Shown here piece by piece: positions 10,964 through 25,646 of a DNA stretch of 25,646 nt; position 1 is the first letter of the stretch, and every line of letters begins with the position of its first letter. The stretch comes from an uncultured Nitrospirales bacterium (GTDB lineage Bacteria > Hydrogenedentota > Hydrogenedentia > Hydrogenedentales > JAGMZX01): contig CAZMVU010000049.1 of the NCBI GenBank assembly GCA_964569295.1, positions 1 through 25,646 of the forward strand. The letters are read 5' to 3'. Under the pieces are notes generated by a model. That model did not search any database and was not told the origin of the DNA. It was given only the letters and a program-made list of their open reading frames with translations. The position numbers and the translations under genes were made by a program.

Positions 10964-12294
10964 GCCAGTTCTGGCACGATAGCGGCGGCACGTTTCATCC
11001 CGTGAGCGCCGTGGACTTTCTGCCGGCGGCGCAATTGCGCGAATTGCAGTTGCACCGGCTTCAGGCGGTGGTGCGCCGCGCCTATGAGCAGGTGGCGTTG
11101 TTCCGGGCGCGCATGGACGAGCGCGGCCTGCATCCCGGCGATGTGCACCGTCTCGCGGATCTCGGCAAGCTGCCGTTCACGCTCAAGAGCGATCTGCGCG
11201 ACACGTATCCCTTTGGGCTGTTCGCCAGCCCCATGAGCGAGATCGTGCGGCTCCATGCGTCCTCCGGCACGACGGGCAAGCCCATCGTGGTGGCGTATAC
11301 GCACGCGGACCTCGCGGTATGGTCAAGCGTGATGGTGCGCGCCTTCGCGGCCTACGGCCTTAAAGATGGGGACATCATACAAAACGCCTACGGCTACGGC
11401 CTGTTTACCGGCGGCCTGGGTGCGCACTACGGTGCGGAAGCGCTCGGCGCGACGGTGATCCCCATCTCCGGCGGCAATACGGATCGCCAGCTCATGGTGA
11501 TGAAAGACTTCAATGTGACCGCCGTATGCACAACACCGAGCTACTTCCTGCGGCTCATCGACCGCGCGCAAGAGCTCGGCATGGATCTGCGCGCCATGCC
11601 GGTGAAGGTGGGTGTATTCGGCGCGGAGCCGTGGACCCACGGGATGCGCCAGCGCATCGAGGCGGAGGCGGGCATCACCGCGTTCGACATCTATGGACTG
11701 TCCGAGATCGTCGGCCCGGGTGTCGGTGCGGAATGCGCGTATCAAAACGGGCTCCACATTTTCGAAGATCACTTCTACCCCGAGATCATCGATCCGGACA
11801 CCGGGGCGGTACTGCCCGACGGCGAGGAAGGCGAACTGGTCTTCACCACCCTGTCGAAGCAGGCCATGCCCATGATCCGCTACCGCACGCGCGACATCAC
11901 GGCGCTCGTGAACGCCCCGTGCGCGTGCGGCCGCAGCATCCGCCGCATCAAGCGCATCGCACGCCGCAGCGACGACATGATCATCATCCGGGGCGTGAAT
12001 GTCTTCCCTTCGCAGGTCGAAGCGGCGCTGCTGGCGGTCGATGGCACGCTCCCGCATTACCAGATCGTGCTGACCAACGACGGCACACTCGACCAGATGG
12101 AAGTGCAGGTCGAGGTGACGCCGAAGGTCTTCAGCGACCGCGTGGGCGCGCTCGAAAACCTCCAGGAGACCCTGGCCCAGGCGATCGAGCGCATTCTGAA
12201 TATCCGCGTGCACCTGCGGCTGGTCGAGCCGAACACCATCGCGCGGTCGGAAGGCAAGGCCAAACGCGTCATAGACAAGCGCCCGAAGGACTGA
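10960..12294 (+). CDS. paaK: phenylacetate-CoA ligase (arylacetate-CoA ligase)
   Basis: AMP-binding motif SSGTTGKP, a PaaK-type N-terminus and a length of 444 aa. There is an ATGA overlap with iorB. Confidence 0.85.
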   Translation: MSQFWHDSGGTFHPVSAVDFLPAAQLRELQLHRLQAVVRRAYEQVALFRARMDERGLHPGDVHRLADLGKLPFTLKSDLRDTYPFGLFASPMSEIVRLHASSGTTGKPIVVAYTHADLAVWSSVMVRAFAAYGLKDGDIIQNAYGYGLFTGGLGAHYGAEALGATVIPISGGNTDRQLMVMKDFNVTAVCTTPSYFLRLIDRAQELGMDLRAMPVKVGVFGAEPWTHGMRQRIEAEAGITAFDIYGLSEIVGPGVGAECAYQNGLHIFEDHFYPEIIDPDTGAVLPDGEEGELVFTTLSKQAMPMIRYRTRDITALVNAPCACGRSIRRIKRIARRSDDMIIIRGVNVFPSQVEAALLAVDGTLPHYQIVLTNDGTLDQMEVQVEVTPKVFSDRVGALENLQETLAQAIERILNIRVHLRLVEPNTIARSEGKAKRVIDKRPKD

Positions 12295-23258: not shown

Positions 23259-23729
23259 ATGCGCCTCTCCAGGCCCCGGCCTGCCGCCCATCAGAGACCG
23301 TGCGCTATGGGCTGGCCTGTCAATCAAGCAAAAACCCAGAAGGCAGCAGCCCCCTGCGCCCTGGAAGAACGGGGGCACCGCCGGTCCAAGTCAAACCGTT
23401 CGAGCAAGTTTCCGCTCTTGTGCCCCGCCATACAACCGGCAAGCAGCACCTGCGTCCCATGTTTCTCGGGCTTTCGGGAATACACCTATTGATTAATAAT
23501 GCGGATTTAGGGTAGACTGGATTCCGTGGTAGCGCGCAAACGGTGGGAAGTTGGAAGGAAAAACGGGAGGTATACCGAGAAAACCCCAAAAAACAACGAG
23601 AGTTTCTGCCGAGACCCGGCCTTACCGACCATTAGTTAGCATAGGGCGGCCCGCTAGTGGCGCGAGCCCCATACAAGCTGTGGCGCACACGATGGATACA
23701 AGGACCACGACGGAAAGGAGAACTCCACT

Positions 23730-24335
23730 ATGCCGAAGAAGAAAACCGCATCCAAAGGCACACGGACCGCAAGAATGGCGTCCACGCCGCTGGACAAAGT
23801 TTCGTCGCAGGCGGAAAAGCTCATGGAACGCATTTCCAATCGCGCGGATGAGGCCGCATCGAGCACGGGACGCAAGGCCTGCAAGCTCGTGCTGTCCGTC
23901 ATCGATTTCCAGAAGACAACCTTCGACAACACCTTCAAGATCATCAGCCAGCTTCAGGAGCAATCCGAGAAGATGGTCAGCACCATGGTCACCGATTCGC
24001 ACTGGGTCCCCAAGGAAGGCAAGTCGGTAGTCAAGGAGTGGGTACAGATGCTCCAGACCGGGCGCAGCGATTTCCGCAAGACCGTGGACAAAAGCTTCGA
24101 CCTGCTGACGGATTACTTCGAGCGCGTACAGAAGGAGGGGATTCCTTCTGCTACGACCGCCAAGAAGAGCACCACCAAGAAGAGCACCGCAAAGAAAAGC
24201 ACCGCAAAGAAAAGCACACCCAAAAAGTCTACCGCAAAGAAGAGCACCGCAAAGAAAAGCACACCCAAAAAGTCTACCGCAAAGAAACCGGCTGCCAAGA
24301 AGAGCACCGCCAAAAAGAAATCGACGGCGTCGTAG
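23730..24335 (+). CDS. PhaF-like protein: phasin-like helical N-terminal domain + histone H1-like (S/T)(A/P)KKS repeat tail
   Basis: AAGGAG RBS 9 nt upstream. The C-terminus is KKSTAKKSTAKKSTPKK repeated. The N-terminal 130 aa are helical and amphipathic. Confidence 0.55.
   Translation: MPKKKTASKGTRTARMASTPLDKVSSQAEKLMERISNRADEAASSTGRKACKLVLSVIDFQKTTFDNTFKIISQLQEQSEKMVSTMVTDSHWVPKEGKSVVKEWVQMLQTGRSDFRKTVDKSFDLLTDYFERVQKEGIPSATTAKKSTTKKSTAKKSTAKKSTPKKSTAKKSTAKKSTPKKSTAKKPAAKKSTAKKKSTAS
24150..24320 (+). repeat. nested coding tandem repeats: 15-bp units (TAKKS/TPKKS) organised into two near-identical 45-bp copies (24186-24230, 24231-24275)
   Basis: Read directly from the sequence. The two 45-bp copies differ by a single nucleotide. 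Confidence 0.85.
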
Positions 24336-24639
24336 AACCGCGCGGTGCAGCGGCACGTCCACAGCCAGACATCAGGGGGGCCTGCTTGATACGGCAGAGC
24401 AGGCACCTCAAGTGCCGTAAACTTCAGCAAGCATAAAGAACATCAAGAAGTTTTCGGACGAAAGCATATAAGCTGCTCGTGTACAGGGTGATACGCTACG
24501 CCCAAAATCTGAAGGCCGGCACGCGCGGCAAGCGGGCCACGTGGCGCCCGCCTTACACGGCGACACGGTCAGGCGGCCCCGCCGCAAACGCGCGCTTTTC
24601 CTAAAGTGCCCGTGTTGAAATCAGCGCCGCGAGCTGCGC

Positions 24640-24690
24640 AAAAACGCCAAAAAAACTGCGTTGACACCCGTCTCTGGAATCTGCTAGACT
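24640..24690 (+). promoter_or_regulatory. strong sigma70-like promoter with an A-tract UP element (AAAAACGCCAAAAAAACTGCG-TTGACA-N17/18-TAGACT)
   Basis: TTGACA at 24661-24666 is preceded by A-tracts. TAGACT also occurs in the putative promoter of the phasin-like gene (TTGATT-N18-TAGACT, ~23489-23518). It lies ~220 nt upstream of tRNA-Glu. Confidence 0.4.
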
Positions 24691-24910
24691 TGCGGTTCTG
24701 TGATGGCGAGGACGGAGGCGGCGAACGGAACATCCCGCGGCTGCTTCACGATACTGTAGAAGAGCGTGTGCTGTGTGTAGCGCGGCTCCAAACGTGCGGC
24801 GGTGGATGAGGCAACGGGGGATGTTCATACAAAGGTTGCAGTTTCCGCCATCATACGCGGAACGGCAACAACGTGCGCCGCCCCGAGACATGACCAAACC
24901 TATCATCCGC

Positions 24911-24988
24911 GACCCCATCGTCTAGCCTGGTCTAGGACACCGGCCTTTCACGCCGGCAACACGGGTTCAAATCCCGTTGGGGTCGCCA
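24911..24988 (+). tRNA. tRNA-Glu (anticodon UUC), CCA encoded
   Basis: Manual fold: 7-bp acceptor stem GACCCCA/TGGGGTC; U8; D stem GTCT/GGAC; anticodon stem CCGGC/GCCGG with loop CTTTCAC; T stem ACGGG/CCCGT with loop TTCAAAT; discriminator G followed by CCA. Closely resembles E. coli tRNA-Glu. Confidence 0.85.
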
Positions 24989-24999
24989 TTTTTGTATCG

Positions 25000-25410
25000 A
25001 ACCAAGTACGGGCGCCACGTTGCCGGTGGCTGCCTTTTCCCCGTGCTCCAGGAATCCCAACATCCCCTCGGCCTTGGGGCGCACGGTCACCTGCGTGCCG
25101 TCCAAGACAATGTCTTCCAACAGGATACGCAGGTAGGTCTTCCGCAGTTCCGGTTGGGCGGAGCACAGCAACTGACGGAGTGCGTGCTGTATTTGCTGTA
25201 TTCGCTCGGGCTTCGCCAGCGAGGCGGGCAAGTCGGGTGTGATTGTCCTGGAGGCGAACTCCTGCTCAAGCTCCGCCTTCTTCAACTTCAGTTCCCGGAG
25301 CCTACCCCCCGCATCCTCCGGCGACATCACCCCTGCCTCGAAGGCCTCGTAGTACCGCTCCAGAGAACGTTCAACCTCCTTCATTTTCCGCCGAAGTTCC
25401 TTGGCCGGGC
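25000..25410 (-). pseudogene. C-terminal fragment of a large serine recombinase-like protein (coiled coil + ...LRILLEDIVLDGTQVTV tail) whose ORF runs into the 3' half of tRNA-Glu
   Basis: Only the C-terminal ~125 aa look recombinase-like. The upstream 40 codons of the ORF are junk, and no catalytic N-terminal domain is present. Confidence 0.35.
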
Positions 25411-25420
25411 CTAATAATAA

Positions 25421-25601
25421 CCAAGGACAGTCACCGTTTATCTGAGACTGTTCGCAACCCGAACCGCCGCCCCTGCTCCCGCAGCAACGCCAAGTAGACG
25501 CGCCGGTCGTCATCAACGAAGAAGACATCCTGCTTGTTGTTACCCCGTTGCACCACGTGGTGTGCAGCGCCCGGTACGACTATCCGCGCGACTCTTGGCA
25601 T
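25421..25601 (-). pseudogene. truncated Y1 tyrosine transposase (IS200/RAYT, COG1943-like) N-terminal fragment, 56 codons, not in the ORF track
   Basis: Own translation of the minus strand: MPRVARIVVPGAAHHVVQRGNNKQDVFFVDDDRRVYLALLREQGRRFGL..., then a premature stop. This matches the conserved PGxxHHVxQRGNNRQ N-terminus of REP-associated tyrosine transposases. Confidence 0.5.
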
Positions 25602-25646
25602 GCACCCATGCTACCCGCGAAGGGCCGGAATGTCAATATAAACGGT

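Follow-up and report, generated by a model that had tools for sequence, protein, structure and literature searches.

In REPIN/RAYT systems, a Y1/HUH transposase gene lies between inverted, partly palindromic short repeats, and short nonautonomous derivatives, each with a pair of inverted repeats, are present in multiple copies (Nunvar 2010; Bertels & Rainey 2011, PMC3116915; TnpA_REP classes, Quentin et al. 2018, PMC6006769). The MITE-like derivatives of IS200/IS605 elements, such as the PATEs of Haloquadratum (PMC3119063), are also short, have kept their ends, have lost the enzyme, and have multiplied in one genome. Islander-type elements have an intact tRNA gene whose 3' side directly adjoins an integrase gene of the tyrosine family that is oriented toward the tRNA (Hudson et al. 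2015, PMC4383910). The same study states that targeting of tRNA genes is not known for integrases of the serine family. S-Int elements were later predicted in t(m)RNA genes (14 of 297), and this observation was called previously unreported and proof was requested (Mageeney et al. 2020, PMC7192596). Our search of the literature on tRNA-targeting serine integrases returned nothing more specific than these two papers.

We analyzed a 25,646-nt stretch of DNA (the window), apparently an entire NCBI contig, from a Hydrogenedentota species. Near its right end, two unrelated mobile-DNA pieces probably abut to the right of an intact tRNA-Glu gene, i.e., the remnant of a large serine recombinase (LSR) integrase and a nonautonomous Y1/REP miniature element. 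The features of this region are as follows.

24911-24988, plus strand: tRNA-Glu(TTC), intact, with an encoded CCA end (ARAGORN; Rfam RF00005, 62.2 bits, E=1.6e-12)
24932-24988, LSR frame antisense to the tRNA, from the CCA end back to the D arm: LSR/tRNA overlap, encoding the peptide WRPQRDLNPCCRRERPVS followed by the stop (sequence and homologs)
24932-25409, minus strand: LSR C-terminal fragment, ~159 codons plus stop (phmmer, Pfam on relatives, alignments)
25417-25441, minus strand: right terminal repeat of the miniature element, ATAAACGGTGACTGTCCTTGGTTAT on the minus strand, which holds the TGA stop of the ORF (copy alignment, motif scan)
25417-25646, minus strand: miniature Y1/REP element, one copy of a ~235-bp unit, ~9 nt short of its left end (eight-copy comparison)
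25601-25431, minus strand: 56-codon ORF (coordinates include the stop), with codons 1 to 49 resembling the N terminus of a RAYT-like Y1 transposase (ORF scan, protein search, alignments)
25608-25636, minus strand: sigma-70-like promoter site, TTGACA-17-TAGCAT (10/12 matches)
25638-25646, minus strand: left terminal repeat, beginning ACCGTTTAT... (alignment with complete copies)

The miniature element ends in inverted REP-like repeats (GGGACAGTCACCGTTTAT). Every copy shows the same order of parts: the left repeat (AAACGGGGACAGTCACCGTTTAT), the promoter-like site, an ATG with 49 transposase codons, and the inverted repeat, which reads ATAAACGGTGACTGTCCCTrrTTAT as the inverted right copy. In the complete copies, the left repeat forms a DNA hairpin (-6.3 kcal/mol; z=-3.8), and folding of the right repeat is poor in this species. 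At least eight copies are present in this species, including the one in the window; three of the others lie on one 8.7-kb contig (L002), two lie in L087, and one each lies in L086 and L088. The copies have a core of 220 to 221 nt and are 90 to 98% identical (mean, 94%), and five of their ORFs have been annotated by NCBI as 56-aa hypothetical proteins (ACLFTT_*). All seven copies outside the window are located in intergenic DNA with no tRNA nearby. In the window, the contig ends inside the left repeat, the remainder of which (GGGGACAGTC... and the outer arm) lies beyond the contig end; the suspicion in an earlier note on this DNA that the window edge truncates the element was thus correct. To judge by its orientation, the promoter-like site at 25608-25636 would be aimed into the 56-codon ORF, then into the LSR fragment, and then, in antisense, into the tRNA.

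The 56-codon ORF had been described in the earlier note as the N terminus of a RAYT/IS200-type Y1 transposase, and protein searches bear this out. Although neither Pfam nor NCBIfam gave a relevant match when run directly on the 56-aa ORF, a protein search returned 37 matches (E=1.7e-26 to 3e-8), several of which carry PF01797 or are named transposase or RayT. The ORF is 73% identical to a 237-aa protein over residues 1 to 52 (E=9e-28), and this relative scores 49 bits against Y1_Tnp (cutoff, 23); membership in the Y1 family is therefore well supported by relatives. The homology stops at about residue 49, before the HUH motif, where the relatives continue with GYCLMxNHVHL ... YVERNP. Because it has neither the HUH motif nor the catalytic Tyr, the ORF is a fragment and not an enzyme. 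Its final codons and TGA stop come from the right terminal repeat. The span of 25601-25421 given earlier is right at its upper end; the lower end is at 25431, and the proposed limit was 10 nt too far.

Scans of genomes and metagenomes with the Y1 fragment yielded 160 loci, the majority of them in Planctomycetota, Phycisphaerae, and Hydrogenedentota and a small number in Zixibacteria and Deltaproteobacteria (the genome collection scanned does not include this species, and the best match there was 83% identical). At most of the loci, the gene is full length, with a product of 221 to 260 aa; these proteins pass the Pfam Y1_Tnp model (49 and 36 bits; cutoff, 23) and contain the motifs NHVHL, HLWQNRF, and YVERNPV. 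Their top NCBIfam family is REP_Tyr_transpos (NF047646), at 68 to 70 bits and thus below its cutoff of 80, and IS200 scores 19 bits. Among the 107 full-length Y1 genes with enough flanking sequence, 74 have a GGACAGTCACC core upstream and an inverted one downstream, compared with 2 of 107 in a within-ORF control. These relatives therefore have the inverted flanking REPs of RAYT genes, and a TTGACA is found at the equivalent position upstream of most of them. The outer arms of the repeats vary between genomes, often in a compensatory manner that keeps the palindrome (e.g., AATAGG..CCTATT, AAACGG..CCGTTT, and AACCG-GGA-CGGTT). Several Y1 genes occur per MAG (four loci in JACQVH01 and three in DAOVLE01), and the single gene copy and dispersed REP/REPIN population expected of a RAYT were not found in this limited and biased sampling. 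Other deletion derivatives of Y1 genes exist elsewhere (e.g., in L038).

The flanks of several full-length Y1 genes (L012, L041, L048, L057, L059, L060, and others) have a stuttered outer arm, i.e., tandem partial copies beside the complete repeat (e.g., GAAACTGGGGGAAACTGGGGGGAAACTGGGGACAGTCACC). Such stuttered arms may have been left by the chemistry of transposition or by slippage.

DNA alignment of the element with the 5' parts of full-length genes placed a deletion junction at codons 49-50, and this junction is identical in the eight copies. A single junction common to all copies indicates that the unit multiplied after the deletion. To judge from these alignments, the ~235-bp element is an internal-deletion derivative of a REP-flanked, RAYT-like Y1 gene. 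In the sequence of events that we propose, such a gene of the HUH type would have lost its interior, leaving a nonautonomous unit that kept both ends, the promoter-like site, and codons 1 to 49. By analogy with IS200/IS605 and REPIN/RAYT systems, a full-length Y1 enzyme may then have copied the unit in trans through its single-stranded hairpin ends. A search for a full-length Y1 gene of this species, conducted with a chimeric query and a metagenome scan, returned none, the MAG of this species being fragmentary; the nearest genes, of 80 to 92% identity, belong to other organisms. The element resembles MITEs in being short, in having no transposase, in its 18-nt inverted ends, and in its uniform copies, but these searches recovered no autonomous partner with the same ends in the same genome. 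No conserved target sequence or flanking duplication that would demonstrate mobility was seen at the element copies.

The two copies in L087 (2948-3180 and 3625-3860) are in the same orientation, ~450 bp apart, in one intergenic region, and the three copies in L002 fall within 3.4 kb. This spacing suggests local clustering of the miniature element. Extra copies of the right repeat also adjoin the element in this species (L002 5563 and 7426).

The second piece, the LSR fragment, belongs to a minus-strand ORF that spans 24932-25528, and its LSR homology is limited to 24932-25409. The fragment contains no internal stop or frameshift, has an ATG at 25384, and corresponds to the last ~160 residues of an LSR of ~545 aa, i.e., to the coiled-coil and C-terminal region only. 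Like the 56-aa ORF, it gave no relevant match to Pfam or NCBIfam in its raw form, and no Resolvase, Recombinase, or Zn-ribbon domain is present on the contig; a word-indexed protein search returned only the fragment itself. The profile searches that the earlier note recommended were thus silent on both raw fragments, and both homologies are strong through relatives. A phmmer search against 1.84e9 representatives recovered 257 matches at E<=1e-3, including 41 at E<=1e-10. The full-length matches (P0042, P0046, P0049, P0063, P0074, and others) are 529 to 556 aa long, and in every one of them Pfam recognizes Resolvase, Recombinase, and Zn_ribbon_recom domains, which places the frame in the serine recombinase family, against which the earlier note had proposed to test it. 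Examples are the alignments with P0042 (543 aa; phmmer E=8.7e-31) and P0046 (541 aa; phmmer E=6e-25; BLASTP, 40% identity, E=2e-31), both with the three LSR domains. From its residue 3 to its end, the fragment aligns with the final ~155 residues of the full-length LSRs and matches only residues ~383 to 541 of them. It is thus an LSR by C-terminal and coiled-coil homology and lacks the catalytic, Recombinase, and zinc ribbon domains. Because its reading frame is blocked upstream and the catalytic two-thirds are not on the contig, the integrase is inactive as it stands. No phage or viral relatives of the fragment were found.

Many of its homologs are C-terminal ORFs of ~190 to 200 aa that start at a conserved internal Met ("MxxLD"). 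Examples of this type include P0068, P0075, P0099, P0110, P0113, P0139, and P0174, several of which have antisense-tRNA tails, and in metagenomes, integrase C-terminal remnants seem to be frequent neighbors of tRNA genes. The closest relatives of the window fragment (P0039, P0040, P0055, and P0148) stand alone and, after "KWRP," leave the tRNA-type tail for an HTH-like extension; C-terminal extensions are also found in the longer LSRs P0066 and P0172, that of P0066 being HTH_ParB by Pfam. These "KWRP"-divergent relatives and the two extended LSRs might represent nonintegrated forms or a separate subfamily.

The LSR frame runs into the tRNA gene, as the earlier note had reported of a recombinase-like frame: its stop (24932-24934) lies within the tRNA, and its last 18 codons plus stop are antisense to tRNA-Glu positions 22 to 78. 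In the resulting peptide, Trp comes from CCA read in antisense, and the anticodon TTC (24947-24949) gives, on the opposite strand, the Glu codon GAA. Relatives that overlap tRNA-Glu(CTC) likewise read the anticodon in antisense as a Glu codon (GAG). The LSR homologs have the same type of tail in the same phase: a Glu-type tail (W.P..DSNP..RER.VS) is found in 34 of 149 homolog clusters, and 46 more have other W....DSN tails, which are typical of antisense tRNA 3' halves. Among the 27 homologs of at least 450 aa, ~19 have an antisense-tRNA tail. The identity of the tRNA-Glu at a full-length LSR was checked as DNA in two loci. In L085 (MAG GCA_964402555.1), a 541-aa LSR (P0046; 9475-11100) overlaps a tRNA-Glu(CTC) on the opposite strand (11044-11119) in the same frame, and in L084, a 548-aa LSR overlaps another tRNA-Glu(CTC), again in the same frame. 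An intact tRNA gene that is directly adjoined on its 3' side by an integrase gene, as in a tRNA-integrated island, is therefore an arrangement that recurs beyond the window. These alignments support the reading of the LSR frame at tRNA-Glu as the attachment geometry of an integrase gene running into a tRNA, which had been recognized before and is formed here by an integrase of the serine family.

By analogy with serine integrases and tRNA islands, an LSR-bearing element would have inserted itself on the 3' side of tRNA-Glu, with its integrase gene left against the tRNA, and the boundary between the two would be the integrase-proximal junction (attL type) of that element. We consider it conceivable, if rather doubtful, that a large and essentially undescribed clade of serine integrases specifically targets tRNA genes, here tRNA-Glu, with ORFs that are completed by ~18 antisense codons in a constant phase (CCA read as Trp). 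If this were true, the C terminus of the enzyme would depend on the integration state, and the P0039-type relatives might be the nonintegrated form.

The expected counterpart of such a junction, an attR in the form of a direct repeat of the tRNA 3' part, was sought as the earlier note had advised and was found neither in the window nor in the 9.4 kb of L085. The 650 bp examined on the island side showed no GC shift across tRNA-Glu. Since there is neither an attR in the window or L085 nor a GC shift, the island is putative and is read from the geometry. An Rfam scan of 23300-25646 matched no family other than tRNA.

Several other features surround the two tRNA loci. Shortly upstream of the tRNA region in the window, 23730-24335 (plus strand) encodes a protein of 201 aa whose C-terminal part is a lysine-rich (KKSTA)n repeat and which has a precomputed Pfam match to HC2 (histone-like). 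A promoter-like TTGACA-18-TAGACT with a TG extension is located at 24661-24690 (plus strand), ~220 nt upstream of tRNA-Glu, and a terminator-like hairpin at 25014-25030 (plus strand) lies just past the tRNA, within the LSR fragment on the opposite strand. In L085, the tRNA-Glu(CTC) is followed 40 nt on by a tRNA-Gln(CTG) (11044-11234 for the pair), and the 9.4 kb on the integrase side encode a GP88-domain protein, a guanylate cyclase, and a sigma-54 activator.

The two mobile-DNA pieces meet closely: the right end of the element is at 25417, and LSR homology (GPAKELRR...) begins within a few nucleotides of it. The element would either have inserted into the integrase gene or border on an integrase remnant that is older than the element. 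A recent insertion would imply that the LSR gene is otherwise intact, with codons 1 to 384 just beyond the left end of the element, and that the window shows an island that was recently disabled and is still complete. The start of LSR homology at the very end of the element fits such an event, as does the good condition of the 159 codons, which are free of stops and frameshifts and 40 to 58% identical to relatives throughout. On the other hand, every other copy of the element is intergenic, and many homologs of the fragment are C-terminal ORFs of ~190 to 200 aa. Its closest relative, P0039 (L169 624-1427; 58% identity), likewise consists of a C-terminal fragment standing alone, which starts within ~14 codons of the same point, with an unrelated gene adjoining and no tRNA nearby. 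Because P0039 is free-standing and has no tRNA neighbor, the LSR fragment may predate the miniature element. We therefore regard a recent insertion into an intact gene as plausible but lean against it.

Stand-alone homologs such as P0039 also raise the possibility that the ORF of 150 to 160 aa is a functional gene consisting of an LSR C-terminal domain only, possibly a regulator of recombination, for which the element provides a promoter. An ATG at 25384 opens this intact ORF, toward which the promoter-like site within the element points. However, the first ~14 homologous codons are missing in comparison with P0039, such fragments have no known function, and the short homologs may be remnants or products of gene calling on short contigs. 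We consider a functional gene of this kind unlikely.

A similar question arises for the 56-aa ORF, which could be a selected small protein, e.g., an inhibitor derived from a truncated transposase. The ORF is open and free of indels in all eight copies, and the variable sites among the four copies compared are distributed over the three codon positions as 3/6/10, a weak third-position bias. Nevertheless, the same four copies differ by ~10 amino acid changes, Gly takes the place of the family-invariant Arg19 in three of the eight copies, and the C terminus and stop are read from the repeat. At ~5% divergence, moreover, an open frame of 56 codons in all copies is not improbable. Selection on the peptide is thus quite improbable, and the ORF is regarded as a passive remnant.

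The earlier note had interpreted the Y1 piece as part of a unique, decayed insertion scar, i.e., as the relic of a single IS200/RAYT insertion drawn to a tRNA hotspot. The piece does lack the HUH and Tyr motifs and does adjoin another mobile-element fragment, but this interpretation did not survive the comparison of copies and now seems highly improbable: at least eight uniform copies share the same truncation point and ends, seven of them lie in ordinary intergenic regions without tRNAs, and their identity of 90 to 98% indicates propagation after the deletion. An assembly artifact, in which unrelated reads were joined through the repeat into a chimeric contig end, would suit the position of the feature inside a repeat at the very end of the contig but is scarcely credible, since complete element copies lie well within contigs of 35 to 58 kb and a second assembly (Candidatus Hydrogenedentota MAG GCA_046542455.1, contig JBKHBE010000045.1 [contig 45]), which is collinear with the window with two differences in 11.7 kb, is identical through the LSR/element junction at 25417 up to its own end at window position 25489. 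Both assemblies break inside the element because the element is repeated.

The region is thus a junction of two mobile-element fragments, each of a known kind, and as such it is ordinary mobile-DNA debris, with two features that are slightly out of the common. Its analysis explains the contig end, at which a repeat breaks the assembly, and identifies two small ORFs as fragments of mobile DNA rather than host genes. The element neatly exemplifies a Y1/REP unit that is intermediate between a REPIN-like repeat and an autonomous gene, in a setting (Hydrogenedentota and Planctomycetota) where Y1/REP systems have been little studied. The more noteworthy by-product, compared with the element, is the possible clade of tRNA-directed serine integrases. 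Of the relatives of the LSR fragment that can be detected, about half end in antisense-tRNA peptides, which provides bioinformatic support for integrases of a kind that PMC4383910 and PMC7192596 treat as unreported or unproven at tRNA genes.

Compared with large serine integrases of the phiC31, Bxb1, and A118 types, the homologs of the window fragment have the same combination of Resolvase, Recombinase, Zn-ribbon, and coiled-coil parts, and the fragment corresponds to the coiled-coil/C-terminal part. They differ in that the ORFs of the clade found here are completed by ~18 codons read antisense from the target tRNA, and the copy in the window is without the catalytic and DNA-binding domains. 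The locus has in common with Islander-type elements that the integrase adjoins an intact tRNA on its 3' side and points in. Here, however, the integrase is of the serine and not the tyrosine family, and the displaced tRNA fragment (attR) is not seen. Like the PATEs, the miniature element is short, has kept its ends, has lost the enzyme, and has multiplied in one genome. Unlike them, it is derived from a RAYT-like unit without TnpB and has kept its N-terminal ORF open, and one 18-nt motif, in near-perfect inverted copies, forms both of its ends, whereas those of PATEs are two different subterminal hairpins. The closest likeness in gene and repeat arrangement is to REPIN/RAYT systems: the Y1 genes lie between inverted, partly palindromic repeats, short derivatives with two inverted repeats occur in multiple copies, and the full-length relatives best match REP_Tyr_transpos and have the NHVH, WQ, and Y..NP motifs. 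In contrast to RAYTs, these relatives score under the NCBIfam cutoff (70 versus 80 bits) and occur as several genes per MAG, in the manner of insertion sequences and not as single copies. In the species of the window, the repeats are found almost only as the ends of the ~235-bp element and not as a dispersed REP/REPIN population, and where a REPIN has a short spacer, the element has an interior of ~190 bp with a promoter-like site and 49 transposase codons.
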